Assembly: GCA_963825295.1 (NCBI GenBank)
Contig: CAWGSZ010000002.1
Span: forward strand, 31,762-95,761
Direction: 5' to 3'
Origin: Vicinamibacterales bacterium
GTDB taxonomy: Bacteria > Acidobacteriota > Vicinamibacteria > Vicinamibacterales > JAMQPK01
DNA: 64,000 nucleotides
Part shown: positions 3,872-58,620 of the stretch, piece by piece
Position numbering within the stretch: the first letter of the stretch is position 1
Layout of the letters: the number at the start of each line of letters is the position of its first letter
Notes under the pieces: model-generated
The model's database searches: none
Seen by the model: only the letters and a program-made list of their open reading frames with translations
Told to the model about the DNA's origin: nothing
Position numbers and translations under genes: made by a program

Positions 3872-4579
3872 ATGCGGCGCTCAATTCCAATTTTCGTCGT
3901 TGCCATCGTGTTCGCCCTGCTGGGCGGCGTCCTGCTGTCGGCGGGACTGTTCGAGCGCAGGATGGCCATTGCCCAGGAAGACATGGCGGTCCTCGACTTC
4001 ACCGATCCCGCGATTGAATACGCGAAGCTCGAGGAGGAGATTGCGGGGGTGCCCCTGGTCTCGGAAAGCGCGCTCAAGGACATTCACCGCCGGCGCGCCA
4101 CGCTTCAGTACTGGCAAAAAGACTATGCGGACCTCATCGAGGTGGCCCGCCAGGCGGCGACCACCGACGACGCCGCCTCGATCGATCCGGAGATGCGCGT
4201 GCTGGCGGCAAACGCCCTGTATCGCGTGGCGCAGCGCGGACCGCAGGATCGCGTGACGCTCCTCAGGAATCTCGACGCGGCGGTTCGCGCCTACAACGAG
4301 GCGCTGCGCGCGGGTGTCGAGCGGCAGGACGTCGCGTTCAACTACGAGCTGGCCGTGCGGATGCGCGAAGAGGTGGGCGCCGGCAAGCGGAAGGCGCTCC
4401 AGAACATGAAGGCGGAAGACGTCGAGAGCGATCCGAACATGCACGGCGATCCCGGCGAGCCGCCGAAGGATCTGAAGGTGGAGCAGTTCCAGATTCGGAT
4501 TCCGATGGATCCGAAGGAAATCAAGCAGAGCCAGGAACAGGCCGCCGGAACCGGCGCTGCCCGCCGGAAACGCGGCTGA
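3872..4579 (+). CDS. Membrane-anchored hypothetical protein in the BatC position of the operon
   Basis: ATG 3872 is preceded by AGGAG at 3862-3866. The product starts MRRSIPIFVVAIVFALLGGVLLSAG, followed by a helical acidic/basic region. This is the tail of ORF 2684..4579, whose upstream part overlaps the VWA gene out of frame. Confidence 0.6.
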   Translation: MRRSIPIFVVAIVFALLGGVLLSAGLFERRMAIAQEDMAVLDFTDPAIEYAKLEEEIAGVPLVSESALKDIHRRRATLQYWQKDYADLIEVARQAATTDDAASIDPEMRVLAANALYRVAQRGPQDRVTLLRNLDAAVRAYNEALRAGVERQDVAFNYELAVRMREEVGAGKRKALQNMKAEDVESDPNMHGDPGEPPKDLKVEQFQIRIPMDPKEIKQSQEQAAGTGAARRKRG

Positions 4580-4582
4580 TCA

Positions 4583-4612
4583 GGGATTAGGGACTGGGGA
4601 TTAGGGATTAGG
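4583..4612 (+). repeat. GGGATTA-family array (G-quadruplex motif) filling the spacer before the next start codon
   Basis: Read directly: GGG atta GGG act GGGG atta GGG atta GG. It ends 2 nt before GTG 4615. Confidence 0.9.
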
Positions 4613-5768: not shown

Positions 5769-6060
5769 TTTTCTCGACTCCTGCTCGCCGGCTTTTTGCT
5801 CGCACTTGGGCCTGCATCTGCCTTCCCATGAAGTGGAAGCGCTCTTGACACCCCTCAAGCTCACGATCGAAAAATGGCCGTCTTAACATTCGTCCGTGAG
5901 GCCGCCACGCGCCAACGCGGTGGCCGGATCCGTCTGCGTCGCGGCCGGAACTGACGCTGCACGAACACGGCCGCTTGCAGACGGATCCGTCCCCCGCATG
6001 GCGTGCGTGGAGCGGTTGTGTGTAGTTCGGCATCAGTTGCACCAGACAAGGAGTCGGCAT

Positions 6061-6314
6061 CCGGCAGTTGGGCTGGCGTTGCTGCAGCGCGAAGCCGTGC
6101 GCAGGCGGCCGACACGTTCAATGCCTGACCGCGCGAGAAGCCTGAGGGAACCGAGCGAGGATGAAAGGCGAAGTCAGTGTCCTCGCGCCACGCGGCCGCA
6201 GTCGGCCTCGCAGCGCGCGTCCGGCCCCGAAGCTTCGGATTCGGGCGGCAGTAATGCCAACCCAACTGCCGCCTGCCGAGGCTTGATCACTTCCGGCAGC
6301 CGTGTTGGCGTGGA
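6061..6314. repeat. Three copies of a ~20-nt motif CCGGCAG-N6-TGGCGT in alternating orientation (REP/BIME-like) within a non-coding region
   Basis: 6062-6080 cggcagttgggctggcgtt pairs with 6253-6271 aatgccaacccaactgccg. That gives 17 Watson-Crick pairs, 1 GU and 1 mismatch over 19 positions. A degenerate third copy lies at 6293-6314. Confidence 0.6.
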
Positions 6315-9312: not shown

Positions 9313-9348
9313 GAAAAAGAGAAAGGGCGCCGGATCACTCCGGCGCCC
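9313..9348 (-). terminator. Intrinsic terminator downstream of actE
   Basis: The minus strand reads GGGCGCCGG agtgat CCGGCGCCC followed by TTTCTCTTTTTC. An adjacent perfect 20-bp palindrome CTTTTTCAGGCCTGAAAAAG lies at 9300-9319. Confidence 0.65.
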
Positions 9349-9382
9349 CCTCAGCCCTTAGCCCTTAGCCCTCAGCCTTTAC
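9348..9382 (-). repeat. 7-bp array CCCTTAG/CCCTCAG, 5 copies (G-tracts on the minus, sense strand)
   Basis: Read directly: ccctcag cccttag cccttag ccctcag cctttac. It starts at the actE stop codon. The minus strand reads GG ctga GGG ctaa GGG ctaa GGG ctga GGGGG. Confidence 0.9.
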
Positions 9383-9768
9383 TTCACCAGCGTCCGGGCA
9401 TAGTTCACGATGTCCGTGATCTCTTCCGGCTTCAGCCGCTTGCCGAGCGCGGGCATGTTGCCGATCTCGGTCTTCTTGCCGTTGGTGATGGATTCGTGGA
9501 TTTGCGCGTCGGTCAGTTTCGACATGACCGCCTTGTCCGAAAGGTTCGGAAGCTTGCCCTTCAGGTTCTTGGCCGCAGGACCGTCTCCCTGGCCTGTGGC
9601 GCCGTGGCACATTACGCACTGACGCTTGTAAAGAGCCGCGCCGTTGGTAATCGATTCCGGGCTGGCGGCCGCCGCGGCGGCGGGCTTCGCCTGGCCGGCG
9701 GCATATACCGCCGTCACGCAAAAAAGGGAAAGAGCTCCGGTCAAAGAAAGAAAGGATCTCATCGTCAT
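9379..9768 (-). CDS. actE: Monoheme cytochrome c (ActE-like subunit of alternative complex III)
   Basis: ORF 9379..9768. It has a signal peptide and a single CVMCH heme motif. It is the last gene of the act-like operon. Confidence 0.75.
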   Translation of the reverse strand: MTMRSFLSLTGALSLFCVTAVYAAGQAKPAAAAAASPESITNGAALYKRQCVMCHGATGQGDGPAAKNLKGKLPNLSDKAVMSKLTDAQIHESITNGKKTEIGNMPALGKRLKPEEITDIVNYARTLVK

Positions 9769-9770
9769 AG

Positions 9771-10274
9771 TTACACCCAGTTTACCTTAGTCGCCCCGGC
9801 CCCGTTGAGGGCGGTCTCCACCGTTTGACGCAAGCCGTCGGGACATGCGACGGCGAGCACGATGCCTCCGTCCACGACGCTGGGATCGTAGGGCAGGTTC
9901 TTGAAGTTGGGCAGTCCCAGTTCGACCAGCAGGCCGACCAGCGTGGCGATCACGGCGCCCAGCATCGTCGTTTCGTAGGTGATGAGGCCGACGGTCCACG
10001 GCGCGACGATAGGCATGCCGCCCTTGATCAGCGGGTAGTTCAACGCCGTGATCGTGGAGAGCGCGAAACCGCTCAGCAGCCCGATGGCGGCGCCCGAAAG
10101 CGCCCAGGTACGCAGCTTCGTGGGCTTCTTCTCCGGCACGATGCGTTCGCCATGAATCGGCTGCGACGACATGACCTCCATCGATTCGGGATCGATGCCG
10201 TCCTTGATGAGGCGCCGCACGGCGACGCGCGCCTGGGTGTGCTCGGCGAACTTGACGAGGCAGGTCTGGGCCAT
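9771..10274 (-). CDS. actD: ActD-like membrane subunit (DUF3341) of alternative complex III
   Basis: ORF 9771..10286, with the likely ATG at 10274 (MAQTCLVKFAEHTQARVAVRRLIKDG). It has two C-terminal TM helices. It lies 2 nt upstream of actE. Confidence 0.7.
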   Translation of the reverse strand: MAQTCLVKFAEHTQARVAVRRLIKDGIDPESMEVMSSQPIHGERIVPEKKPTKLRTWALSGAAIGLLSGFALSTITALNYPLIKGGMPIVAPWTVGLITYETTMLGAVIATLVGLLVELGLPNFKNLPYDPSVVDGGIVLAVACPDGLRQTVETALNGAGATKVNWV

Positions 10275-10287
10275 AGTGAATCTCAAA

Positions 10288-10357
10288 CTAGAATCTAAAA
10301 ACTAAAAACTAGAAACTACAACCGAGAACTGAAAACTGAAAACCGACGACTGAAAAC
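10288..10357. repeat. AT-rich 7-bp array (CTAGAAT/CTAAAAA/TGAAAAC), 10 units, filling the actC-actD spacer
   Basis: Read directly: ctagaat ctaaaaa ctaaaaa ctagaaa ctacaac cgagaac tgaaaac tgaaaac cgacgac tgaaaac. Confidence 0.9.
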
Positions 10358-11748
10358 TAATGAGCAGGATGCACGTCGCCCGCCACCTGCGTTCCGATGC
10401 TCGCCGGGTGATGCTCCGCCACCGTGTGTTTGGCAACCGAGTACCCCTCTTCGATCTCCCAGATGGAAATCATCGGGCTGAACTTGGCGAAGAGGAAATA
10501 CAACAGGACGAACAGGCCCAGCGTGCCCGATGCGATAGTCGCTTCAATGAGCGACGGGAAGTACGTACCGTAGTTGTACGGCAGGTACGGATGCGTGAGC
10601 GTAGGCACGATAATCAGGAACCGCTCCAGCCACATGCCGACGAGAATGCAGGTCGACGCGACGAAGATGAGCGGAATCGTCCGCAGCTTCTTGATCGCCA
10701 GAATCGGGAACGGGATCACGAAGTTGCACACGACCATCAGCCAGAAGAGCGGGGCGAAGCGGCCCGAAATCTTCGACCAGAAGACCGGCATCTCGGGCGC
10801 CTCGTTGCCGTACCACGTCACGAGGTACTCCGTGAACGTGAAGTAGAACCACAGCAGGCTCATCGCGAACAGCATTTTCGCGAGGTTGTCGAAATGGATC
10901 GGCAGCAGGTACTGCTCGAGCTTGAAGTACTTCCGGATAAGCACCATGGCGATCAGCAGCGCGGCGATACCCGAGAAGATGGCCCCGACGACGAAGTACG
11001 GTCCGAAGATGGTGCTGCGCCACATCGGCATCAGCGTCATCGCGAAGTCCCACGACACGATCGTGTGAACCGACACCGCGACCGGAATGATGATGAGCGC
11101 CATGATGGAGATGGCTTTTTCCAGCCGCACCCATTCCCGTTCCGTTCCCCGCCATCCGAGCGCGAGCATGCGGTACATCTTCTTGCGCCAGCCGGTGGCT
11201 TTATCGCGCGCGACGGCCATGTCGGGAATCATCGGCAGGTACAGGTAGGTGACGCTGCCGGTGAGGTAGGTGTTGATGGCGATGAAATCCCACATCAGCG
11301 GCGACTGGAAGTTCGGCCACAGGTACCGGTTGTTGGGCACCGGGATCATCCAGTAGAACAGCCACGCGCGTCCGAGGTGGACGATGGGAAAGAGCGAGCC
11401 GGTACAGAGGGCGAATGTGGTGATCGCTTCCGCGCACCGGGTGATCGGCCTGCGCCACTCGGCCTGCACGACCCGCAGAATGGCCGAGATGAGCGTGCCG
11501 GCGTGGCTGATGCCGATCCAGAAGACGAACGTCGTGATGTAGAGGCCCCAGAACGACGGGCGGTTCTTGCCCGCCATGCCGATGCCGTATTTCAGCTGAA
11601 AGAACCAGGCCACGAACACCATGCCCGTCACCGCGAGGAGCACGGCGAGCATGATGTAGTACTTCGGTCCGGTCTTGAAGAGCGGACCCAGCAGGTCGCG
11701 ATTGATCTGGGCTTCCGTTGGATGAAAGGGTGCCGGAGTCTGAGCCAC
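10357..11748 (-). CDS. actC: NrfD/PsrC-family integral membrane quinol-interacting subunit (ActC-like)
   Basis: ORF 10357..11748, 463 aa. It is polytopic, and its position directly after the Fe-S subunit (1-nt gap) is typical of ACIII and polysulfide-reductase-like complexes. Confidence 0.85.
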   Translation of the reverse strand: MAQTPAPFHPTEAQINRDLLGPLFKTGPKYYIMLAVLLAVTGMVFVAWFFQLKYGIGMAGKNRPSFWGLYITTFVFWIGISHAGTLISAILRVVQAEWRRPITRCAEAITTFALCTGSLFPIVHLGRAWLFYWMIPVPNNRYLWPNFQSPLMWDFIAINTYLTGSVTYLYLPMIPDMAVARDKATGWRKKMYRMLALGWRGTEREWVRLEKAISIMALIIIPVAVSVHTIVSWDFAMTLMPMWRSTIFGPYFVVGAIFSGIAALLIAMVLIRKYFKLEQYLLPIHFDNLAKMLFAMSLLWFYFTFTEYLVTWYGNEAPEMPVFWSKISGRFAPLFWLMVVCNFVIPFPILAIKKLRTIPLIFVASTCILVGMWLERFLIIVPTLTHPYLPYNYGTYFPSLIEATIASGTLGLFVLLYFLFAKFSPMISIWEIEEGYSVAKHTVAEHHPASIGTQVAGDVHPAH

Positions 11749-11749
11749 G

Positions 11750-12436
11750 TTAGGCGTCCCCTTCCTTCAAGTACACGACGCGCGGCCGGGTGCCGAGCTC
11801 TTCGAGCAGCCGGTACCCGCGGCGCGAATGCGCCAGCTTCGAGACGCGGCTCTCGGGGTCGGTCATGTCGCCGAACGTGATCACCTTCGACGGGCAGGCC
11901 TGCGCGCAGGCGGGCTGAATCTCGCCGTCACGCACGCCGCGGGTTTCGTCCTTGGCCGTGTCCTGCGCGCGACGGATGCGCTGCACGCAGAAGGTGCACT
12001 TCTCCATGATGCCGCTCGTGCGGATCGACACGTCGGGGTTGAGCTGCTCGTTCAGCGGGCTCGGCCACTCGGGGGTGAACCAGGTGAAGTAGCGCGCCGT
12101 GTACGGGCAGTTGTTCGCGCAGAAGCGCGTGCCCACGCAGCGGTTGTAGACCTGGGCGTTCAGGCCCTCGGGCGTGTGATACGTCGCGTTGACGGGGCAG
12201 ACCGGCTCGCAGGGCGCCGCATCGCACTGCTGGCACATCACCGGCATGAAGCGCGCCCGGATGTTCGGGAATTCACCCTCCCAGTAGCGTTCGACGCGAA
12301 TCCACTGATGCGTCCGGCCGTTGGCCGCCTGCTCCTCGCCGACGACCGGCAGATTGTTTTCGGCATGGCACGCCACGACGCAGGCTTCGCAGCCCGTGCA
12401 GCGATCCAGGTCGATTGTCATTCCCCACTGGGCCAT
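11750..12436 (-). CDS. actB: 4Fe-4S ferredoxin-type iron-sulfur subunit (ActB2-like)
   Basis: ORF 11750..12436. Cys clusters: CTGCEACVVACH, CQQCDAAPCEPVCP, CVGTRFCANNCP and CTFCVQR...CAQACP. Confidence 0.85.
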   Translation of the reverse strand: MAQWGMTIDLDRCTGCEACVVACHAENNLPVVGEEQAANGRTHQWIRVERYWEGEFPNIRARFMPVMCQQCDAAPCEPVCPVNATYHTPEGLNAQVYNRCVGTRFCANNCPYTARYFTWFTPEWPSPLNEQLNPDVSIRTSGIMEKCTFCVQRIRRAQDTAKDETRGVRDGEIQPACAQACPSKVITFGDMTDPESRVSKLAHSRRGYRLLEELGTRPRVVYLKEGDA

Positions 12437-12443
12437 TGGAACT

Positions 12444-12506
12444 CCGAATCTAAAATCTAGAATCTACAATCTGAAATCTTCGAACTGATAACTGAAAACT
12501 GAAACC
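12444..12506. repeat. AT-rich 7-bp array (TAGAATC/TGAAAAC family), 9 units, filling the actB1-actB2 spacer
   Basis: Read directly: ccgaatc taaaatc tagaatc tacaatc tgaaatc ttcgaac tgataac tgaaaac tgaaacc. Confidence 0.9.
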
Positions 12507-12512
12507 CGGTTC

Positions 12513-14830
12513 TTACCGATGCAACGGATGCTCGTGATGCCCGCGAGCATCGCTGGCGCCGAACCGTACCAACCTGACATTCCGTCCCGTTTTGGTGATG
12601 CCGACGCGCACGCCGGTCTGCAGCACCGCGCCAGTTGTGGTGTCGAGCGCCGACTGGCTGATGCGCAGGGGATTCTCGCCGCGATTCTGCGCGTAGCGGC
12701 CGAACTGCGTATGACCCTGACCGGCCGGAATCGCGATGACGTCCGGACGCAGGCCGGGATACAGGAATGCCGGGAGCTCGATGATGCCGTGCGCCGATCT
12801 GATCGTCAGCACGTCTCCCTCGTGGATCTCCATCTTGTGCGCCGTTTCCGGATTGATTTCGACCCACGATCCCCACATGACGGTGGTCATCGGGTCGGGC
12901 ATTTCCTGCAACCACGGCAGATGCGCGCTGCGTCCATCGGCGAACGCGGCCGACGGATAGATGTGCAGCATGTACGGCATCCCGGCGACGTCGCCCGCAA
13001 ATGGCCGTGCGGCCACCGGCTGCGCAGGCACGACGAAGTTCATGCGCCCGGAAACGGGGTCGGGAGGGGTTTTCGATCCCTTCTCCGCGAAAACCCCTCC
13101 CGACCCCGTTTGGGCCGACACCGCAGGCGCGGGATTCCACCATCCTCCCGCCGCGGTCACCTTGCGATAGAACGCCTCGAAGTCGGCCTCGACCGTCGAG
13201 CCCGCCTGCAGCGTGTGAACCGATCGGAACGATTCCTTCACCGCAGCCGCCATGTTCTCGAACGGCATGGCTTCGGCGGCCTTCCCTCCGAGTGCCTTCG
13301 CCGTTTCAATCAGGACGTCACCGGGGTCACGGGTCTCCCATCGTGGCTCGACGACAGGCTGACCGAGCGTCCGCACCGCAAATCCAACGCCCGGTTCCGG
13401 CACATCGTCGATCCATCGCTCGAGCGAGACGTGGCTCGGGAGAATCAGATCGGCCATGACGGAGGTTTCGTCGAGAAACGACGCCAGGCTCGCGATGAAC
13501 GGCACGTTCGCCAGCGCCGATCGCAGCTTGTCGGCTTCAGGCAGCGAGAAGAGAGGATTGGTGTCGAGCACGACCAGCGCCTTGATCTGGCTCTGCCCCA
13601 TCGCACCGATGAGCGCATGAATATCGGTGTGAGGTGCCGCTCCCTGCGCGGGTACGGGCCCGCTCGTGTCATCGGCCCCGAACAGGATGCCGCCCTGGCG
13701 GCCGTATGCGCCCACGAGCGCATTCAGCGCGAAGATCGCCGTCAGCGACGCGACGTCGCGGCTGTCGCCGATGGCGACGCTCGGCCGGCGCGCGGCGAAC
13801 TCGCGCGCGATGCGCTGGATTGACGCGGCAGGCACGTCGATCGCGGCGGCCACTTTCTCTGGCGCGTAGTCGCCGAGCGAGGCCGACCATGCCGCGAACC
13901 CGTTCGTCCGCTGATCCACGAAGTCGGCGTCGTAGAGCTTCTCGTTGACGATCACGTTGAGCCATCGCGAGCGCGAGCAGGCCTTCGGTGCCGGGCTTCA
14001 TCGGCAGCCACTCGTCGGCGCACGCCGCCGTCTGCGACAGCCGCGGCTCTGCGTGGACGAACTTGCCGCGTATGCCCGGGCGTCCCTGGCGGAACTCGCC
14101 GTACCGAGTACATGTAGCGCACGGGCGAGAGGAACGTCTCGAACAGGTTCGCGTTGAACGACAGCAGATAGTTCGCGCGGGCGAAGTCGACGGCTGGAAG
14201 CCGCGAGACGCCCGTGACCAGCTCCATCGCCTTGCGAATGGGCGCGGGATCGAACGGATCGTACGAGACGACATGGTTCGTGCCGAGGCCGGCGGCGAAG
14301 CGTTCGACGACGGTGCCCATGGTGCCGCGGTTGCGGCGGCCGGAGAGGAGCGCGATCGCCTGCGGCGACGCTTGCTGCTGCTGCAGCGCGGTCACGAGCT
14401 GCTGCTGCGCTTCCTTCCAGGTGATGGGTTGATACTGCCCCGTGCCGCGCGGTCCGAGGAGCTTGAGCGGCGTCTGGATGCGATCGGGGTGATAGAGCGC
14501 CTGCACGCCGGCCTGCCCGCGGGCGCAGGTGCCGCCCATGCTGATCGGATGCTCGGGGTTCCCCTCGATCTTCTTCGCCTGCACCGCCTTGACGCGTTTC
14601 TGCTGTCCGTCGATCGTGCGGATCGACTCACCCTGCATCACGCGAACGGTGATGCCGCATCCCGCGGAGCATTGCTGGCAGAGCGTTCGCACCCAGCCTT
14701 CTTCGCCCGGCACGAACCGATCTTCGGACACGAGCAGCGGAATCAACTGCTGCGGTTTGCCGCACCCGTCGAGGATGAGCCCGGCGGTGCCCGCGACGCC
14801 GCCGGTTTTGAGGAAATCGCGTCTTTTCAT
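12513..14830 (-). CDS. actB: Molybdopterin-oxidoreductase-like subunit (ActB1-like), two apparent frameshifts
   Basis: It has the Tat signal MKRRDFLKTGGVAGTAG and the motif CQQCSAGCG. Three ORF pieces join into one protein if two indels are corrected: 13952..14830, the YGEFRQGRPGIRGKFVHAEPRLSQTAACADEWLPMKPGTEGLLALAMA segment of 13669..14274, and 12513..13955. The indels are at about 14104-14105 (GG run) and 13957-13958 (AA run). With the second fix the junction reads LALAMAHVIVNEKLYDADF. Confidence 0.8.
13052..13111. repeat. Perfect 24-bp inverted repeat with a 12-nt loop (60 bp total) inside the actB1 coding sequence
   Basis: aaacggggtcgggaggggttttcg (13052-13075), atcccttctccg, cgaaaacccctcccgaccccgttt (13088-13111). 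The same arms occur at 47677-47775. Confidence 0.9.
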
Positions 14831-14834
14831 CGAG

Positions 14835-15332
14835 CTACTTGTGGCAGACGAGGCAATCGATGCTCACCTGCTTCTCCCTGTGGCAGTCGATGCACTTGCC
14901 CATCGTCCATTTGACGTTTTCCCGCATGTCCATCATTTGAGCCATGTCGCCGTGGCACGTGGAACACTCGACGCCGGCTTTCACGTGCCGCTTGTGCGTG
15001 AAGTTTACGGCGGCCGAAGGAGCGAAGCCGTAGACGCGCACCCAGGGCGGTTCTTCCCCAGCCTTGGCGAACGCGGCGAGCTTCTGAATCTCCGGGCTCT
15101 CGGGCTTGACGTTCTCGTGGCAGACCATGCACTCGGTCACGCTCGGAATGGTGGCGGCGATCGATCGGTCGGCGTTCACATGACACGTCAGGCATTCCAT
15201 CTGGTTGTCAGTCACGTGGGTCTTGTGCGGGTAGGCAACGGGCTGCGCGATGGGACCCGCGGGCCAGAAGGCGGCCGCTGCCGAGGCAATCAGCAGAGTC
15301 AGCACAACAGCGCCGAAAACGAATTTACGCAT
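14835..15332 (-). CDS. actA: Pentaheme cytochrome c (ActA-like)
   Basis: ORF 14835..15332. It has an N-terminal TM anchor and five CXXCH motifs: CLTCH, CMVCH, CSTCH, CIDCH, CLVCH. Confidence 0.8.
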   Translation of the reverse strand: MRKFVFGAVVLTLLIASAAAAFWPAGPIAQPVAYPHKTHVTDNQMECLTCHVNADRSIAATIPSVTECMVCHENVKPESPEIQKLAAFAKAGEEPPWVRVYGFAPSAAVNFTHKRHVKAGVECSTCHGDMAQMMDMRENVKWTMGKCIDCHREKQVSIDCLVCHK

Positions 15333-17961: not shown

Positions 17962-18541
17962 GGTTCGCCTCATCTTCTTCGAACAATCGATCGGCTGCGA
18001 GACGTGCGCGCCGACCAGGCGCGCGCTCGAGCAGATCGTCGACGAGAACGAGCACGTGGAGCTCGAAGCGCTCAATCTCGTGCTCGACAGGGAGAAAGCC
18101 GCCGAGTACGGCGTGGATCGGGTGCCCGCGGTTATCATCGAGGCGCCCGGACGCGATCGCATTCGCTACTACGGCGCGCCGCTGGGCTACGAGTTGCCCA
18201 CGCTGGCGGAAGCCGTGCACATGGCGGCGACCGGCGAAACGCGGCTCAGCGACGAGAGCCGCGCGCAGCTGAAAGCATTGACGACACCCGTGCACCTGCA
18301 GGTGTTCTACACGCCAGGCTGCGTCTATTGCCCGCGGATGATTTCGCTGGCGAATCAAGCCGCCATCGAAAGTCCGCTCGTGACCAGCGTGGCCATCGAT
18401 GCCGCGGAGTTCCCGGATCTCGTCCGCCGCTACAACGTGAACGGCGTGCCCAAGACGGTGATCAACGACTCGCTCGAGCTCATGGGAGCCGCGCCGGAAG
18501 AGGACTTCATGGCGGCTCTTGCCCAATCCACCGGGGAATAG
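17945..18541 (+). CDS. Two-domain thioredoxin-fold protein disulfide oxidoreductase (glutaredoxin-like)
   Basis: ORF 17945..18541. The CETC and CVYC motifs sit in two thioredoxin-like halves. It overlaps the upstream gene by 17 nt. Confidence 0.75.
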   Translation: MTSSSKVRLIFFEQSIGCETCAPTRRALEQIVDENEHVELEALNLVLDREKAAEYGVDRVPAVIIEAPGRDRIRYYGAPLGYELPTLAEAVHMAATGETRLSDESRAQLKALTTPVHLQVFYTPGCVYCPRMISLANQAAIESPLVTSVAIDAAEFPDLVRRYNVNGVPKTVINDSLELMGAAPEEDFMAALAQSTGE

Positions 18542-18564
18542 GGAATAGGGATTGGGGATTAGGG
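18533..18564 (+). repeat. GGGAATA/GGGATTA array with five G-tracts (G-quadruplex motif)
   Basis: Read directly: GGGG aata GGG aata GGG att GGGG atta GGG. It contains the upstream TAG stop (18539-18541) and the downstream TTG start (18552). Confidence 0.9.
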
Positions 18565-20574: not shown

Positions 20575-22293
20575 ATGCACCTGCTCGACTGGGGAGTGAT
20601 GGCCGCCTACATCGCGTGGCTCGTGTGGGACGGCGTCAAGCGCACCAAGCTCGAGCGCACCACCGAATCGTACTTCCTGGCGAACCGATCGATGCCGTGG
20701 TGGGCCGTCGGTCTCTCGGTGATGGCCACGCAGTTGAGCGCCATCACGCTGGTCGGCACGACGGGGCAGGGCTACAACGACGGCCTGCGGTTCGTGCAGT
20801 TCTATTACGGGCTGCCGCTCGCGATGGTGATTCTGTGCGTGACGCTCGTGCCGTTCTTCTATCGAGCCAGGGTCTACACGGCGTACCAGTACCTGGAGCG
20901 GCGCTTCGATCTCAAAACACGCACGCTGACGAGCGGGCTGTTTCTCGTATCGCGCGCGATGTCGTGCGGCGCGATCGCCGCCGCCCCGGCGGTCGTGCTG
21001 TCGGTCGTGCTCGGATGGAGCGTCACGATGACGACGCTGCTGATTCTCGTGCCGGCGGTGATTTACACGATGCTCGGCGGCGTGCAGGCGGTGACCTGGA
21101 CCGACGTCAAGACGATGAGCCTGACGGTGGTGGCGCTCGTCATCGCCGTAGTGTTCCTCGTGCGGGGACTGCCCGAAGGCGTGGGCGTGGACGATGCGCT
21201 GGCAATCGCCGGCGGCACGGGCCGGCTGCAGGCCTTCGATCTGCGCTTCACGCTGACGGAAACCTACACCTTCTGGTCGGGCATGCTGGGCGGCCTCTTC
21301 CTGATGCTGTCCTATTTCGGATGCGATCAGAGCCAGGTGCAGCGGTATCTCACGGCGAAATCCGAGGATGCCGCCAAGACGTCGTTGTTGATGAGCGCGT
21401 ACTGGAAGATTCCTCTCCAGGTGCTCGTCCTCGTCGTCGGCGTCCTCACGTTCGTGTTCTATCTGTTCAACCAGCCGCCGCTCTTGTTCAACCCGATTCA
21501 CGACCAGCGCGTGCGGACGGGCGAATCGGCGCCGGCATATGCGGCGCTGCAGCGCGAGTTCCAGACGACGTTCGACGCGCGCCGGCAGGCGGCGGTCGAG
21601 ATGGCCGCGGCCCGCCACGCGCACGATGTGCGCGAACAGGCGCGCGCGACCGACGAGTTCAGCCGGCAGGATCGGACGTTGCGATCGATCAGGACGAAGG
21701 CGGCATCGCTCGTCAAACAAACGACGGGCGACTCGAATTACAACGACGTGAACTACGTGTTTCCCACCTGGATTATGACGGCGCTTCCGATCGGCATCGT
21801 GGGGCTGTGGATCGCCGCCATCATTACGGCCGCGACAGATTCGATTGCGGCCGAGCTGAACTCGCTGTCGACCGCCTCGGTCATCGACTTCTACAAGCGG
21901 CTGGCGCAGCCTTCGGCATCGGACGCGCACTATCTGTTTGTGTCGCGGGCCACCACCGGGTTCTGGGGTGTGTTCGCCGGCTTTGTCGCCGTGTACGCGA
22001 GCAGCCTCGGGTCGCTCATCGAGGTGGTGAACCGGTTCGGGTCGTTTTTCTACGGCTCGATTCTCGGGGTGTTCATGCTGGCGATTCTCACGCGCCGCGC
22101 GACGGGTACGGGAGCCTTTGTTGGCCTCCTCACGGGCATGGTCGCGGTGGCGTCGGTTGCCTTCGGCCGGCCGGACATTTCGTTCCTGTGGCACAACGTG
22201 ATCGGCGCCGTCGTGGTCTTCAGCGTTGGTTCGCTGGTGAGCCTCTTTACAGATCACGCTCTTACAGAAGATCAGAAGATCAGAAGAAAATAA
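20575..22293 (+). CDS. Sodium:solute symporter family transporter
   Basis: ORF 20575..22293, 572 aa, polytopic. It has an SSF-like N-terminus (YFLANRSMPWWAVGLSVMATQLSAITLVGT). Confidence 0.85.
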   Translation: MHLLDWGVMAAYIAWLVWDGVKRTKLERTTESYFLANRSMPWWAVGLSVMATQLSAITLVGTTGQGYNDGLRFVQFYYGLPLAMVILCVTLVPFFYRARVYTAYQYLERRFDLKTRTLTSGLFLVSRAMSCGAIAAAPAVVLSVVLGWSVTMTTLLILVPAVIYTMLGGVQAVTWTDVKTMSLTVVALVIAVVFLVRGLPEGVGVDDALAIAGGTGRLQAFDLRFTLTETYTFWSGMLGGLFLMLSYFGCDQSQVQRYLTAKSEDAAKTSLLMSAYWKIPLQVLVLVVGVLTFVFYLFNQPPLLFNPIHDQRVRTGESAPAYAALQREFQTTFDARRQAAVEMAAARHAHDVREQARATDEFSRQDRTLRSIRTKAASLVKQTTGDSNYNDVNYVFPTWIMTALPIGIVGLWIAAIITAATDSIAAELNSLSTASVIDFYKRLAQPSASDAHYLFVSRATTGFWGVFAGFVAVYASSLGSLIEVVNRFGSFFYGSILGVFMLAILTRRATGTGAFVGLLTGMVAVASVAFGRPDISFLWHNVIGAVVVFSVGSLVSLFTDHALTEDQKIRRK

Positions 22294-22320
22294 TGGTCTT
22301 CTGACCTTTTGATCTTCTGT
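22266..22320. repeat. 8-bp array AGAAGATC, 3 copies, followed by its reverse complement TCTTCTGA, 3 copies (hairpin, terminator-like)
   Basis: agaagatc agaagatc agaagaaa, ataatgg, tcttctga ccttttga tcttctgt. The stem is about 23 bp with 3 mismatches. The left arm encodes the symporter tail EDQKIRRK. Confidence 0.85.
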
Positions 22321-23247: not shown

Positions 23248-23317
23248 CGACTTGACGACTTTCGACCTGCGTCAGACGCCTTGCGCCCGCCGACTTTCGA
23301 CTTGCGACTTTCGACTA
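23248..23317 (+). repeat. 7-bp array NCGACTT, about 10 units (central units degenerate)
   Basis: Read directly: cgacttg acgactt tcgacct gcgtcag acgcctt gcgcccg ccgactt tcgactt gcgactt tcgacta. Confidence 0.85.
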
Positions 23318-36586: not shown

Positions 36587-36655
36587 GATGGCAATGGCGG
36601 ATGGCAGATGGCAACGACAACCATCTGCCATCTGCCATGTGCCATCTGCCATGAC
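36587..36655. repeat. Dyad-symmetric 7-bp array: GATGGCA, 4 copies, then CCATCTG, 5 copies (long hairpin between convergent genes)
   Basis: gatggca atggcg gatggca gatggca, acgacaa, ccatctg ccatctg ccatgtg ccatctg ccatgac. Confidence 0.9.
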
Positions 36656-40542: not shown

Positions 40543-40598
40543 TGGAGTAAAAAGTCAAAAGTGAAAAGTGAAAAGTGAAAAGTTGAAGGTGAACGAGA
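40543..40598 (+). repeat. 7-bp array AAAAGTG, about 8 units, filling the hlyD-ABC spacer
   Basis: (gtggagt) aaaagtc aaaagtg aaaagtg aaaagtg aaaagtt gaaggtg aacgaga. It ends 1 nt before ATG 40600. Confidence 0.9.
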
Positions 40599-46172: not shown

Positions 46173-47675
46173 ATGTCTGAGACCGCCATCCTCGAACGGC
46201 TTCGACTGGCGACGGAATTTCTGAACGCGGTTGCCGACGACCGATCGGTGCTGAACGGCGTAGACCGGGAAGAGCGGCATCGTTTTCTACGGGCGGTGGC
46301 GCGCGTCTACAGTCCCGAGCGCGCGGAGCGCCGGCTGATGAAACGCGCGGCGGCGCGCGATCGCAGGGCGGCGCGTAACAAGGCCGAACAGGCCAAACGA
46401 TCCGAGACCGGCATCCAGGCGCTTCGGCGCAAGCCAATCTTTCACTCGCCGAACGTGTTCCCCCCCCCGCGCTTTCAGCAGCAGGATGTCGAGGACGAAG
46501 TGGCCCCTGAAGAATCGGCTGCGCCCGGTGTCGCCAGGACCATCGAGCCTCGCCACTGCTACGTCTGCAAGCAGGCGTACGACGAGATTCACCATTTCTA
46601 CGATCAGATGTGTCCAGCGTGCGCCGAGCTGAACTTCGCGAAGCGCACCGAGCTGGCCGATCTCGGCGGCCGTGTCGCCCTGCTCACCGGAGGGCGCGTG
46701 AAGATCGGCTATCAGGCCGGGCTCAAGCTGCTCCGGTCGGGCGCGCATTTGATCGTCACCACCCGTTTTCCGCGCGATTCCGCGGCGCGCTATTCGCGCG
46801 AGCCCGACTTTGGCGAGTGGGGCCACCGGCTGGAGATCTTCGGTCTCGACCTCCGGCACACACCCAGCGTCGAAGCGTTCTGCCGCGAGATGTTGCGGAC
46901 TCACCGGCGGCTCGACTTCATCGTCAACAACGCGTGCCAGACCGTGCGGCGGCCGCCCGCGTTCTACGCGCACATGATGGAAGGGGAGCGCGCGGCGCTC
47001 ACAGGCCTGCCCGAACACTCGCTGAAGCTCGTCGGCGAGTACGAACGTCCGGCCGCGGCCGTTCCGGGAGTCGCGCATGCCCCGAGCCTGTCGCAGGTGC
47101 CCCTGCTCGTCGAAGAGCTCGTTTCACAAAACGAGCTGTTCCCGGCGGGCCAGCTCGATCAGGATCTGCAGCAGGTCGATCTGCGCGGACGCAACTCGTG
47201 GCGGCTTCTGCTGCATGAGGTGCCGACCGTCGAGCTGCTCGAAGTGCAGCTCGTCAACGCCATCGCGCCGTTCATCCTGAACGCCCGGCTGAAGCCGCTG
47301 ATGACCCTGACGCCGGATCGCGATAAACACATCGTCAACGTGTCGGCGATAGAGGGCCAGTTCTATCGCCGGTTCAAGACCACGCGTCATCCGCACACGA
47401 ACATGGCGAAGGCGGCGCTCAACATGATGACGCGTACATCGGCCACCGACTATCACCACGACGGGATCCACATGAACAGCGTGGACACCGGCTGGGTAAC
47501 CGACGAGGATCCGGTGGAGATCGCCGCCCGAAAAGAGATCGAGCAGCGCTTCAGCCCGCCCCTCGACAGCGTCGACGGCGGCGCCCGCATCGTCGATCCG
47601 ATTATTTCCGGGTTCAACACCGGAAAGCACGTGTGGGGACTGTTTCTGAAGAACTACCAGCCGACCGACTGGTGA
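46173..47675 (+). CDS. SDR family oxidoreductase with a ~150-aa N-terminal extension containing a CxxC...CxxC zinc-ribbon-like motif
   Basis: ORF 46173..47675. The SDR core has the Rossmann motif VALLTGGRVKIGYQAG and the NNAC motif. The N-terminus has a basic coiled-coil-like stretch and CYVCKQAYDEIHHFYDQMCPAC. Confidence 0.75.
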   Translation: MSETAILERLRLATEFLNAVADDRSVLNGVDREERHRFLRAVARVYSPERAERRLMKRAAARDRRAARNKAEQAKRSETGIQALRRKPIFHSPNVFPPPRFQQQDVEDEVAPEESAAPGVARTIEPRHCYVCKQAYDEIHHFYDQMCPACAELNFAKRTELADLGGRVALLTGGRVKIGYQAGLKLLRSGAHLIVTTRFPRDSAARYSREPDFGEWGHRLEIFGLDLRHTPSVEAFCREMLRTHRRLDFIVNNACQTVRRPPAFYAHMMEGERAALTGLPEHSLKLVGEYERPAAAVPGVAHAPSLSQVPLLVEELVSQNELFPAGQLDQDLQQVDLRGRNSWRLLLHEVPTVELLEVQLVNAIAPFILNARLKPLMTLTPDRDKHIVNVSAIEGQFYRRFKTTRHPHTNMAKAALNMMTRTSATDYHHDGIHMNSVDTGWVTDEDPVEIAARKEIEQRFSPPLDSVDGGARIVDPIISGFNTGKHVWGLFLKNYQPTDW

Positions 47676-47676
47676 G

Positions 47677-47775
47677 AAACGGGGTGGGGAGGGGTTTTTT
47701 TGCTGACAGGGATGGCAATGTGCGGTGGCGCAGCCCTTCAGGGCTGTCCCGGGAAAACCCCTCCCGACCCCGTCG
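47677..47775. repeat. Palindromic element: the same ~22-bp arms as 13052-13111, here with a ~55-nt interior
   Basis: The left arm is aaacggggtggggaggggtttt and the right arm is aaaacccctcccgaccccgt (one mismatch). The interior contains the hairpin cagccc ttca gggctg and the 10-mer gatggcaatg, which is shared with the 36587 array. It begins 2 nt after the SDR stop. Confidence 0.85.
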
Positions 47776-48414: not shown

Positions 48415-48986
48415 TGAGCCTGTACGAGATCCCGTTGACGACAATCGACGGCCAGACGGTCACGCTCGATCGCTACCGTGGGAAGAGGCTCCTCATCGTG
48501 AACGTGGCGAGCCGGTGCGGGTTCACCCCTCAATACAAGGGACTGGAAGAGCTCTACCGGCGGCGCAAGGACGATCTCGTCGTCCTCGGGTTCCCCTGCA
48601 ATCAATTCGGCCGTCAGGAGCCTGGCAGCAACGAGGAGATACGCCAGTTCTGCGACGACTATTGCAGCGTGACGTTTCCGCTGTTCGCCAGAATCGAGGT
48701 CAACGGCGCGAACGCGCACCCGCTGTTTCGCTTTCTGAAAGCGGAGAAAAGAGGATTTCTGGGACGCGAAGCGATTGCGTGGAACTTCACGAAGTTCCTC
48801 GTTGGACCCGGCGGCGACGTGCTGAAGCGCTACGGGTCGCGCGTGAAGCCGGAAGCCATCGAGAAGGAGCTGTACGGGTTCGTCAGGTTCGTGAGGTTCG
48901 TGGGTTCGTCAGGTTCGACGAACTTACGAACCGACGAACTTGACGAACCCGACGAACCGACAAGGTATTCTCATGACAGACGATGA
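48414..48986 (+). CDS. gpx: Glutathione peroxidase (Cys type) with a repeat-encoded C-terminal extension
   Basis: This is the tail of ORF 48354..48986, starting at ATG 48414 (TGATG overlap). Motifs: NVASRCGFTPQY, LGFPCNQFGRQEPG and WNFTKFLV. The last ~35 aa (GFVRFVRFVGSSGSTNLRTDELDEPDEPTR...) are translated from the 9-bp array. Confidence 0.85.
   Translation: MSLYEIPLTTIDGQTVTLDRYRGKRLLIVNVASRCGFTPQYKGLEELYRRRKDDLVVLGFPCNQFGRQEPGSNEEIRQFCDDYCSVTFPLFARIEVNGANAHPLFRFLKAEKRGFLGREAIAWNFTKFLVGPGGDVLKRYGSRVKPEAIEKELYGFVRFVRFVGSSGSTNLRTDELDEPDEPTRYSHDRR
48876..48962. repeat. Dyad-symmetric 9-bp array: GGTTCGTNN, 5 copies, then NNACGAACC-type units, 5 copies
   Basis: gggttcgtc aggttcgtg aggttcgtg ggttcgtc aggttcgac, then gaacttac gaaccgac gaacttgac gaacccgac gaaccgaca. 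The arms can pair over about 40 nt. Confidence 0.9.
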
Positions 48987-54238: not shown

Positions 54239-55221
54239 TGTACCGGCAACTCGGTAGAAGCGGCTTGAGGGTATCGGCGATTGGCCTGGGGTGCATGGGC
54301 ATGTCGCAGAGCTACGGGACGCCCGACGCCGACGAATCCATTCGCACGATCCATCGCGCCCTCGACCTCGGCGTCACGCTCGTGGATACGGCGAACGTGT
54401 ACGGCAAGGGAGAGAACGAGGAGCTCGTGGGCCGCGCCATTCGCGACCGGCGGAAAGAGGTGGTGCTGGCGACGAAGTTCGGCCTCAGCATGGGTGCCAG
54501 CGCGATGTCGGCGGGCGTTGACGCCAGGGCCGAGCTCGTCGGGCCGTCGTGCGACGCGAGCCTCGCCCGTCTCGGGGTGGACGTCATCGATCTCTACTAC
54601 CTCCACCGCGTCGATCCCGGGGTGCCCATCGAAGAGACGGTTGGGGCGATGGCGGATCTCGTTCGCGCAGGGAAAGTGCGCTTTCTCGGGCTGTCGGAAG
54701 CGGGTCCAGACACATTGCGCCGCGCGGCGAAGATTCATTCCATCGCCGCGCTTCAGTCGGAGTTCTCGCTCTGGTCGAGAGATCCGGAGCGGGGCGTGCT
54801 CTCAGCGTGCCGCGAGCTTGGCATCGGCTTCGTGCCATTCAGCCCGCTCGGCCGCGGGTTCCTGACCGGCACGGTGAAGGACACCGGCGGTCTCGTGGAG
54901 AACGACGTCCGCCGGCATCTGCCGCGCTTTCAGCAGGAGAACATTTCCCGGAACGTGCGTCTTGTCGAAGGTCTCGAGGGCATGGCGCGCTCGAAGGGCT
55001 GCTCGGCGGCGCAGCTCGCGCTCGCGTGGCTGCTGCACAAGGGCGACGACATCGTGCCCATTCCCGGCACGAAGCGCCTCCGGTACCTGGAAGAGAACGT
55101 CGAAGCCGTGAACATCACGCTGACGCCTCGAGAAATGAGCGAGCTCGATGACTCGTTTCAGGCCGGCGCCGTCGCGGGCGAGCGTTACGGACCTGAGAGC
55201 CTGAAGTTGGTGGAAAACTAG
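54235..55221 (+). CDS. Aldo/keto reductase
   Basis: It starts [24 protein letters not shown], with the ATG overlapping the corrected upstream stop (ATGA). Other motifs are LVDTANVYG and LGLSEAG. Confidence 0.85.
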
Positions 55222-55270
55222 AATCTAAAATCTAGAATCTAGAACTAAAATCTAGAATCTGAATAGAATC
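55219..55270 (+). repeat. AT-rich 7-bp array TAGAATC/TAAAATC, about 7 units; the first unit contains the AKR stop codon
   Basis: Read directly: tagaatc taaaatc tagaatc tagaac taaaatc tagaatc tgaatag aatcttc. Confidence 0.9.
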
Positions 55271-55278
55271 TTCGAGCA

Positions 55279-55572
55279 ATGCACTACCTGCTTTTTTACG
55301 AAGCCGGGGCGGATTATGCGGAACGGCGGCAGCCGTTCCGGGTGGCACATCTCCAGCACGCGCGCAATGCGGTCGCACGCGGCGAGCTCGTGCTCGGCGG
55401 CGCGCTGGCCAATCCGATCGATGGAGCCGTGCTGCTGTTCCGCGGCGATTCGTCAGCCGCCGCGGAGCAGTTTGCGAAAACCGATCCCTACGTGACGAAC
55501 GGCGTCATTCAGCGATGGCACGTGCGCGAATGGACGACGGTTGTGGGTAACGATGCTGAAACTAAAATCTAA
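55279..55572 (+). CDS. YciI family protein
   Basis: ORF 55279..55572. It reads MHYLLFYEAGADYAERRQPFRVAHLQHARNAVARGELVLGGAL. The last codons (AETKI) come from the next array. Confidence 0.8.
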   Translation: MHYLLFYEAGADYAERRQPFRVAHLQHARNAVARGELVLGGALANPIDGAVLLFRGDSSAAAEQFAKTDPYVTNGVIQRWHVREWTTVVGNDAETKI

Positions 55573-55610
55573 AAACTAGAATCTAGAATCTGGAATCTGA
55601 AACCTTAAGA
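55556..55610 (+). repeat. AT-rich 7-bp array CTAAAAT/CTAGAAT, about 8 units
   Basis: Read directly: ctgaaa ctaaaat ctaaaaa ctagaat ctagaat ctggaat ctgaaac cttaaga. Confidence 0.9.
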
Positions 55611-58550: not shown

Positions 58551-58620
58551 GATCTAGAAACCAGGAACTGAGATCCAGAGATTTCAGATTCTAGTTTGTA
58601 GATTTTAGTTTCTAGATTCA
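58551..58620. repeat. Dyad arrangement of the CTAGAAA-family 7-mers: 4 forward units then 6 reverse-complement units
   Basis: ctagaaa ccaggaa ctgagat ccagag, then agatttc agattct agtttgt agatttt agtttct agattca. tctagaaac (58553) pairs with gtttctaga (58608). It abuts the stop of the YVTN gene. Confidence 0.85.

Follow-up and report, generated by a model that had tools for sequence, protein, structure and literature searches.

A palindromic element within actB1

The window analyzed here is a 64,000-nt stretch of DNA assigned to a Vicinamibacterales bacterium (Acidobacteriota; GenBank assembly GCA_963825295.1, contig CAWGSZ010000002.1, positions 31,762 to 95,761), and it carries an operon resembling that of alternative complex III (ACIII). 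A sequence-only reading of this window had proposed that actB1, one gene of the operon, contains in frame an inverted repeat with perfectly matching 24-bp arms around a 12-nt loop, 60 bp in total, and that the same arms occur with one mismatch at an intergenic position. The features on which the analysis centers are listed below with their coordinates in the window.

13052-13111, no strand assigned: hairpin element in actB1, with arms at 13052-13075 and 13088-13111 and the loop at 13076-13087.
12513-14830, minus strand: actB1, a molybdopterin-oxidoreductase-like subunit with a twin-arginine translocation (TAT) signal, assigned by Pfam and sister-genome comparison.
13041-13136, minus strand: hypervariable inter-domain linker of ActB1 (NPAPAVSAQ...SGRM), defined by an alignment of 120 homologues and by Pfam.
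47677-47775, no strand assigned: second, intergenic copy of the same family, with arms at 47679-47698 and 47754-47773 and a 55-nt spacer.

The data showed that the coordinates and the sequence of the palindrome in actB1 had been read exactly, with 24-nt arms that are 100% complementary and 12 nt between them; the 18-nt cores of these arms, which are invariant in the family, lie at 13056-13073 and 13090-13107. When the 24-mer arm was searched for with up to three mismatches, four matches were found in the window, two in each copy, versus none in 100 dinucleotide-preserving shuffles, and the 12-nt core of the arm gave the identical four matches versus 0.11 expected. The 100-nt neighborhood of the hairpin is predicted to fold with -62 kcal/mol as RNA (z = -5.5) and with -39 kcal/mol as DNA (z = -6.6). 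The element is in frame on the minus strand inside the open reading frame (ORF) 12513-13955, in which the translation given in the sequence-only reading was recovered; the peptide encoded by the element is QTGSGGVFAEKGSKTPPDPVSG, and together with its flanks it reads ...SAQTGSGGVFAEKGSKTPPDPVSGRMNF.... An Rfam scan of the window found no family at gathering score, and the sub-threshold matches on the hairpins were only chance miRNA-like ones.

The intergenic copy at 47677-47775 is also real. Its arms are 20 nt long and 95% complementary, and its 55-nt spacer contains a small hairpin of its own. The single mismatch to the actB1 arm applies to the 18-20-nt core, and there are three mismatches over the full 24-mer. 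The upstream gene (46173-47675) is SDR-like, and this copy starts 2 nt past its TGA stop codon.

The ORF 12513-13955 corresponds to the C-terminal 480 codons of actB1 and contains the Pfam domains Molybdopterin and Molydop_binding, and the adjoining ORF 13952-14830 contains the TAT signal, the Fe4S4 domain and the beginning of the Molybdopterin domain. The closest relatives of the window, with about 95% DNA identity, are the loci L001 (metagenome-assembled genome (MAG) MFD02809.bin.1.263) and L002 (MAG MFD05747.bin.1.108), which encode intact ActB1 proteins of 770 aa and 764 aa, respectively. Compared with both sisters, actB1 of the window contains two singleton insertions of 1 nt each, one near 14105-14107 and one near 13957-13959, and is thereby divided into three frames; deleting both insertions yields a 771-aa ORF with a dN/dS ratio of 0.126 against L001. 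The two frameshifts are most simply explained as long-read indel errors, which they probably are, because 22 kb of the L001 assembly likewise contain 23 singleton 1-nt insertions, and actC of L001 is fragmented. Alternatively, they could mark a very recent pseudogene.

A dispersed family with invariant arms

An exact-pattern scan of species-representative genomes with GGGGTSGGGAGGGGTTTT, using one genome per species, found at least 106 stretches at both genic and intergenic sites, in agreement with the earlier proposal of a dispersed palindromic element. Seven Vicinamibacterales MAGs are among those listed with matches, four of them with at least 18, at least 14, at least 13 and at least 5 loci, hence the arm has many copies beyond the two first noticed. 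The genome of the window was itself outside the scan, and these copy numbers, which are taken from sister MAGs, are lower bounds. The same 18-nt arm was present in four MAGs of Pirellulaceae from different studies, among the matches listed.

The invariant 18-bp arm is GGGGTCGGGAGGGGTTTT, and the consensus of 55 Vicinamibacterales-type copies is GAAAA(A/C)-GGGGTCGGGAGGGGTTTT-CG-(11-13 variable nt)-CG-AAAACCCCTCCCGACCCC-(T/G)TTTC. Of these copies, 43 have two exact arms, and the other 12 have one arm with one or two mismatches, while the spacer is 15-17 nt long in 47 of the 55. The bases immediately outside the arms are complementary well above chance, yet they are copy-specific, and the loops at non-orthologous sites are near random (mean best identity 0.41 versus 0.34 for shuffled loops). 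Nearly all matches are inverted pairs and lone arms are rare; a single arm has no self-complementarity, and the GTAG tag of classical repetitive extragenic palindromic (REP) sequences is absent. Versions with long spacers also exist, and the loop of the copy in the locus L080 harbors a nested palindromic element of another kind, 215 bp long. The copies in Pirellulaceae have the same 18-nt arm with CGCGG/CCGCG closers, spacers of either 39-43 nt or 7 nt, and usually 1-3 transitions in one arm. These G-to-A or C-to-T mismatches of the Pirellulaceae copies occur in either arm, and no consistent G·U strand could be defined among them.

A third host phylum, indicated by a MAG labeled Bifidobacteriaceae, was rejected, as its DNA is Vicinamibacterales-like, 82% identical to MFD05747 and 64% GC. 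The four loci from this MAG (L061, L077, L078 and L092; CAYHHH01, 'uncultured Bifidobacteriaceae bacterium ERP119702_co1_17') have 63-65% GC, with the 82% identity to MFD05747 found for L077, which also contains the present hairpin family, and by these sequence properties the label is almost certainly wrong. A phage origin of the element was rejected as well, since a scan of viral contigs gave only three single arms.

Presence, absence and decay of the element in the ActB1 linker

The linker that contains the element follows the conserved AAGGWW motif and precedes (R)VNFV(M/V)P, directly ahead of the C-terminal Molydop_binding domain. The element accounts for 20 of about 30 linker codons in actB1 of the window; across the homologues, which carry the label Vicinamibacterales, the linker varies from about 14 to 40 residues, and the window version is not unusual. 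Alignments to PDB structures (ArrA, PsrA, Nap and ACIII 8k9e_B) obtained by sequence and profile searches stop at about query position 527 and resume at about 617, leaving the linker unaligned. An AlphaFold2 model of the homologue P0001, based on a 66-sequence alignment, had a mean pLDDT of 51 and a pTM of 0.45, and no conclusion about exposure was drawn from it.

The comparison of homologues, which had been suggested as a check, showed that the segment has a narrow distribution. Among the 120 ActB1 homologues, the same linker peptide was found only in P0001 and P0002 (96% identity). A large group of proteins with 87% identity has AAAAAAAATPAKAS, with a poly-Ala stretch, in place of the element, while P0025 and P0026 (81% identity) contain in the linker the related peptide SGGGVVTGAKAPPDP. 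The DNA of P0025, which was the one checked at this level in the 81% lineage, P0026 being assigned by its peptide, reads GTCGGGAGGGGGTGTCG...AAAGCCCCTCCCGACCCC; this is a decayed but recognizable copy in the same frame and place, in which it is the left arm that has decayed. No case of the peptide encoded by non-palindromic DNA, which in unrelated homologues would have spoken against an inserted repeat, was found among the 120 homologues.

The element of L001 is identical to that of the window, with no changes in 60 nt at a dS of 0.123, at which about seven would be expected at the synonymous rate, and the element of L002 has one substitution in the loop and a 21-bp deletion in the flank. By these comparisons the element predates the split of the window organism and its 95%-identical sisters, and it was probably already present in the common ancestor with the 81% lineage, in which it would be decaying. 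Either the element is older than the 81% split and disappeared from the 87% group, or there were two hits at the site.

Two other Vicinamibacterales lineages, L114 (P0038) and L115 (P0032), have in-frame heptamer tandem repeats in the ActB1 linker, namely (GGGCAGA)n, translated as GQRAEGRGQ, and (GGCTKAR)n, translated as GLGLKAEGLGLKAEG. As judged from these sequences, the linker seems to collect several kinds of the repeat DNA of this clade. The earlier idea that the element had inserted into, or was tolerated within, actB1 is supported by these data as far as tolerance is concerned; a clean addition of 60 nt was not what the comparison showed, as the filled allele replaces linker codons. The insert, about 20 residues of the linker, would be neutral for ActB1.

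Intergenic copies and in-frame copies in other genes

Copies were called genic or intergenic with a crude ORF filter based on GC content at third codon positions (GC3), which gave the act operon correctly. Of the 55 Vicinamibacterales-type copies, at least 12 (22%) are in frame inside genes, and about 78% are non-genic. About 20 of 30 clearly intergenic Vicinamibacterales-type copies are located at most 25 nt from a stop codon, and of the gene pairs around intergenic copies, 9 are convergent, 17 co-directional and 1-2 divergent. A Pfam check covered 11 genic sites; besides actB1, ten sites are supported by Pfam, with domains on both sides of the insert or across it, and one by a continuous ORF and orthology. 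The proteins concerned are the following.

L103, also L117: ClpA, D1-D2 linker (Pfam).
L073: PrmA (Pfam).
L072: Lhr-type helicase (Pfam).
L066: urease gamma/beta (UreA-UreB) linker (Pfam).
L092: CheA (Pfam).
L034: MacB/FtsX permease (Pfam).
L007: HupE/UreJ (Pfam).
L046, L107: spermidine-synthase-like membrane protein (Pfam downstream only; continuous 1081-aa ORF, with the same insert in the orthologue).
L060: enolase, Pirellulaceae (Pfam).
L027, L100: HisA/F-like protein, Pirellulaceae (Pfam).

The copy in enolase forms a 23-aa insertion relative to PDB entry 4rop. For ClpA both filled and empty alleles were found, the latter in relatives at 88-91% identity with a short, empty linker, and in the ClpA copy of L117 the pairing of the arms is broken by in-frame 3-nt deletions. 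At 4631-5374 of L066 (minus strand), urease gamma and beta form one 247-aa ORF with the hairpin element as the linker. All six frames of the arms are free of stop codons, and all three reading frames are used. The arm peptides, which are rich in Gly, Ser and Pro, are GSGGVF, GREGF and GVGRGF on one side, and KTPPDP, KPLPTP and NPSRP on the other.

Linkage of the repeat to a Y1 transposase gene

A motif search of six-frame translations of all the DNA examined found one ORF similar to REP-associated tyrosine transposases (RAYTs), which is located in L071 directly beside a single arm. Homologues of this ORF match PF01797 (Y1_Tnp), and some of them are labeled 'REP-associated tyrosine transposase' by JGI; P0267, which matches PF01797, contains the motif MPNHFHLIL. 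The order purN-RAYT-purM was found in five loci from different samples (L071, L119, L120, L121 and L122), and the transposase gene appears to be single-copy, as judged from one contig per protein.

The repeat and the transposase gene are joined at the sequence level. The final codons of the transposase gene are formed by one C-rich arm, which is translated as ENPSRPLF, or as ENCTRPL in a variant, and the arm overlaps the stop codon. Beyond purN, either a G-rich arm or a complete hairpin of the matching variant is present in the loci L119, L120 and L121; the sequences of L071 and L122 stop before this region. Both flanking repeats of L119 carry the same compensated variant, GGGGTCGGGTGCTATTTT / AAAATAGCACCCGACCCC, versus AAAATTGCACCCGACCCC at the end of the gene. 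Among 120 homologues of the transposase, many C-terminal tails are translated ...CCCGACCCCTTT arms (NPSRPLF, KTPPDPF, NCTRPLF, KDSRPLF, KAPDPF and RLPTPF). From the sequences, such arm-encoded C termini look like the arrangement that is expected of a transposase and its cognate repeat.

Several further details of these loci were observed. In L121 (4200-5622), and also in L119, L120 and L071, purN and the transposase gene lie jointly between inverted arms, and about 15-27 nt at the 3′ end of the transposase gene are shared with purM, which is convergent to it. The variant arm GGGGTCGGGTGCTATTTT / AAAATAGCACCCGACCCC occurs at 2267-2313 and 3671-3688 of L119, where it flanks the RAYT-like gene of MFD05747, and at 4927-4944 of L029, beside a canonical copy. 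Its occurrence in L119 and L029 suggests that sub-families may exist.

Conservation of the arms and possible origins of the element

At eight independent orthologous sites with flanks 71-97% identical, the arms had 6 mismatches in 288 nt versus 38 expected at the rate of the flanks (Poisson P about 1e-10), and the loops at these sites were 73% identical. Decay is possible in genic copies, as seen in the left arm of P0025 and the ClpA arms of L117. One orthologous intergenic slot, where the genomes are 96-97% identical, shows an exchange of the element for an unrelated 127-nt hairpin made of heptamer repeats.

The 60-bp hairpin in actB1 is a copy of a dispersed repeat, which is likely of the type of REP doublets forming hairpins (REPINs) or of terminal inverted repeat (TIR) dimers, and is linked to, and probably spread by, a Y1 (HUH) transposase of the RAYT or TIR-associated (TIRYT) type. 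In such a case, a host-encoded, single-copy Y1 (HUH) tyrosine transposase would spread the hairpin repeat, and we infer that it would mobilize or maintain the element as a single-stranded DNA hairpin. Such repeats usually reside in the first few nucleotides behind a stop codon; a copy that landed in, or was recruited into, a length-tolerant linker in a multiple of three would do little harm and persist. Genic copies could be harmless and persistent because the arms are free of stop codons in six frames and encode Gly/Ser/Pro-rich peptides. Similarly, the element may survive in the ActB1 linker because it is stop-free and encodes a flexible peptide, and because the site is free in both length and sequence.

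Several observations weigh against this origin. Neither a target-site duplication nor a clean boundary was found in the filled versus empty alleles of ClpA or in ActB1, and the filled alleles of both proteins replace 7-9 linker codons. The six-frame motif search found no RAYT-like gene in the window or in 31 Pirellulaceae loci. In the purN-RAYT-purM loci, purN separates the left arm from the transposase gene, and this arm could be coincidental. The GTAG tetranucleotide with a palindromic REP, which marks REPIN/RAYT systems, has no counterpart here, where the flank is GAAAA(A/C)...(T/G)TTTC. Furthermore, invariant arms beside near-random loops are not what simple copy-and-paste of the whole element would produce, and they require sequence-specific maintenance.

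A possible, though considerably less likely, explanation is that the element is a 3′-end module useful to the host, either a bidirectional intrinsic terminator or a hairpin stabilizing mRNA 3′ ends, which would be compatible with a transposase origin. The actB1 copy would then be a stray one, or it would have an RNA-level role in the act operon, such as pausing, processing or segmental mRNA stability. Such a function is consistent with the location of about two thirds of the intergenic copies at most 25 nt past a stop codon, with the near absence of divergent gene pairs, with the GC-rich stem between an A-tract and a T-tract, and with the conservation of the arms far beyond that of the flanks, also inside genes; the exchange of the element for the unrelated 127-nt hairpin at an orthologous slot also suggests that the presence of a hairpin is what matters. 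On the other hand, a terminator scan (loop of 3-8 nt, at least five T within 8 nt) called neither copy in the window, which have loops of 12 and 55 nt and T-runs shorter than five, and the consensus tail of the family is just TTTT(C). A need for structure only would permit compensatory drift, whereas the sequence of the arm is the same everywhere, and there was no Rfam family match. The absence of the actB1 copy at 87% identity, its decay in the 81% lineage, and the loss of arm complementarity in the ClpA copy of L117 after in-frame 3-nt deletions also argue against this function. It is plausible that intergenic copies act as 3′-end hairpins, and this would not be exclusive of their linkage to the transposase.

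It is improbable that the arm is a DNA-uptake-type signal, similar to the DNA uptake sequence or uptake signal sequence (DUS/USS), or a protein-binding signal, held by molecular drive. A short invariant motif in variable surroundings, present in inverted pairs past stop codons and in frame in many genes, and common to related species, would fit such a signal. However, the near-universal pairing of the arms with a constrained spacer, the rarity of single arms, and the physical linkage to a Y1 transposase gene whose homologues have cognate variant arms do not, and the genic copies add residues to the protein instead of recoding those already there, while the 18-nt motif is identical in two phyla. 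The remaining explanation, that the palindrome is outside any repeat family and arose as a local accident, namely an inverted duplication by template switching, or as an artifact of long-read assembly, is effectively refuted. The source does resemble a long-read metagenome assembly with indel noise, as illustrated by the singleton insertions in actB1 of the window and in L001, but two assemblies made independently from other samples contain the identical 60 bp at this position, and dozens more copies were found, some of them in short-read SPAdes and MEGAHIT assemblies.

Comparison with known repeat systems

REPINs consist of two invariant inverted 16-mers and a less conserved spacer, in which length and hairpin closure matter, and they are found near RAYT genes (Bertels and Rainey 2011; PMC3116915). 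The present family likewise has two invariant inverted end segments (18 bp versus 16 bp in REPINs) that form a hairpin, and a less conserved spacer kept for length and hairpin closure. In both systems there are many copies, mostly extragenic, which are dispersed and persist at orthologous sites, and a vertically inherited Y1/HUH transposase gene is linked to the repeat; in the present case this is a PF01797 gene in conserved synteny, flanked by the repeat. The differences are that here the GTAG tag is missing, the individual arm lacks the form of a small palindrome, units measure about 60 nt versus about 90-130 nt, and the loops are almost unrelated between copies. In addition, at least 22% of the copies are intragenic here, and the hosts are Acidobacteriota and Planctomycetota, not Proteobacteria.

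Another relevant group are TIRs and TIRYT genes, which are described by Di Nocera et al. (2013; PMC3733652). According to this paper, TIRYT genes are RAYT-like and have long flanking TIRs, which in some cases extend into the 3′ end of the gene and in many cases have GGGGWSAS as their first bases, and TIRs form moderately abundant families of dimers with variable spacers of similar length, the cases including Acidobacteria (Koribacter) and Rhodopirellula baltica. It also describes REPs and Rickettsia palindromic elements (RPEs) in frame inside known proteins, where they add 20-30 residues. The present system resembles such TIRtrons in the RAYT-like gene bracketed by long inverted repeats other than GTAG REPs, with overlap of the 3′ end, and in the dispersed, moderately abundant family of dimers. 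The start of the arm, GGGGTCGG, matches the TIR consensus GGGGWSAS given there at 7 of 8 positions, with G instead of A at position 7. The differences are that purN stands between the left arm and the transposase gene, that in-frame genic copies are far more prominent here, and that the present arm sequence and host clades are not in the portion of Di Nocera et al. (2013) that was available.

In behavior only, the element also resembles RPEs and intragenic REPs, as all are palindromic repeats in frame in functional conserved proteins, to which they add 20-30 residues at permissive positions. RPEs, palindromic repeats in frame within protein genes, were reportedly described by Ogata and colleagues in 2000. 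They are unrelated in sequence to the present family, are mostly 100-150 bp long, CGTC-tagged and confined to Rickettsia, and have no dedicated transposase, whereas the 60-nt element resides in free-living soil hosts from Vicinamibacterales and Pirellulaceae; it does not belong to the RPE sequence family. [quoted passage not shown] The present element shares with them that it is a short non-coding repeat with terminal inverted repeats, often located next to genes, co-transcribed and occasionally intragenic. It differs in that its interior is unrelated between copies and the copies in ClpA and ActB1 lack flanking direct repeats, and it was not assigned to this class. Hence, from the description "REP/MITE-like" in the sequence-only reading, the first part is retained in the form of a likeness to REPINs and TIR dimers with a RAYT-like Y1 transposase, while the second part is not, given the lack of a target-site duplication and the unconserved interior.

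The act operon and other repeats in the window

The operon actA-actB1-actB2-actC-actD-actE, which is alternative-complex-III-like, occupies 9379-15332 on the minus strand. Besides actB1 it consists of the following genes.

14835-15332, minus strand: actA, multihaem c7-type cytochrome.
11750-12436, minus strand: actB2, 4Fe-4S protein.
10357-11748, minus strand: actC, NrfD-type membrane protein.
9771-10286, minus strand: actD, PF11821.
9379-9768, minus strand: actE, cytochrome c.

The assignment of actB1 is based on this context, in which a TAT molybdopterin-like subunit has ActA, ActB2, ActC, ActD and ActE as neighbors. ActB1 also has weak PDB matches to the ACIII ActB chains 8k9e_B, 6lod_B, 6f0k_B and 6btm_B.

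Short tandem heptanucleotide repeats (AGGGATT, GATTAGG, CCCTTAG, AAACTAA, AATCTAA, AGTGAAA, CTAGAAT and others), reminiscent of cyanobacterial short tandemly repeated repetitive (STRR) sequences, stud the intergenic regions. The arrays in the window are located at 1396-1439, 4578-4612, 9348-9381, 10285-10343, 12447-12479, 18534-18564, 23291-23316, 40546-40583, 55218-55271, 55562-55602, 58582-58619 and 59697-59726, and one of them is between actB1 and actB2. Hairpins with arms formed by inverted runs of 7-9-mers are present at 36587-36652, 22264-22320 and 48875-48961 of the window (for example, GATGGCA x4 versus CCATCTG x4.6). A hairpin of this kind at about 5522-5650 of L089 occupies the exact intergenic slot of a GGGGTC hairpin in L023, which is 96-97% identical. 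A second dispersed palindromic, MITE-like family has copies of about 215-226 bp with 77-92% identity to each other, located at 6054-6279 of the window, at 18648-18863 of L001, in L107, L089, L074 and L028, and at 7569-7780 of L080, the last one being nested in the loop of a GGGGTC hairpin.

Implications

In-frame insertion of palindromic repeats is a known phenomenon, as illustrated by RPEs and intragenic REPs, and it is the present family and its hosts that appear to be new. The data indicate that in-frame palindromic colonization of conserved proteins extends beyond Rickettsia and a small number of REP-rich Proteobacteria, and that such copies are common in abundant uncultured soil Acidobacteria, where they reach core enzymes. 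For annotation this means that low-complexity segments such as 'GSGGVF...KTPPDP' and 'RGREGFS...ENPSRPL' in the proteins of these clades are repeat-derived, and should be taken neither for functional motifs nor for evidence of misassembly.

The family also provides a compact REPIN-type system, with an 18-nt arm, a syntenic Y1 transposase with an arm-encoded C terminus, and variant arms that change with variant transposases. It is suited to the questions of what keeps the arms identical while the spacers randomize, and whether such repeats are parasites or useful 3′-end modules. On a wider and more tentative view, one RAYT/TIRYT-hairpin system whose 18-nt arm is shared by Acidobacteriota (Vicinamibacterales) and Planctomycetota (Pirellulaceae) might be a recurrent donor of protein linkers in free-living soil bacteria, as the arm is stop-free in six frames and encodes flexible Gly/Ser/Pro peptides. 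The arms would be kept identical in sequence for long periods, also within genes, by ongoing transposase-dependent conversion or by a host function. If this were true, the phenomenon would resemble that of RPEs, at a wider scale and with an identifiable enzyme, and the system would have contributed linkers to ActB1, ClpA, enolase, PrmA, CheA, Lhr and the UreA-UreB junction.

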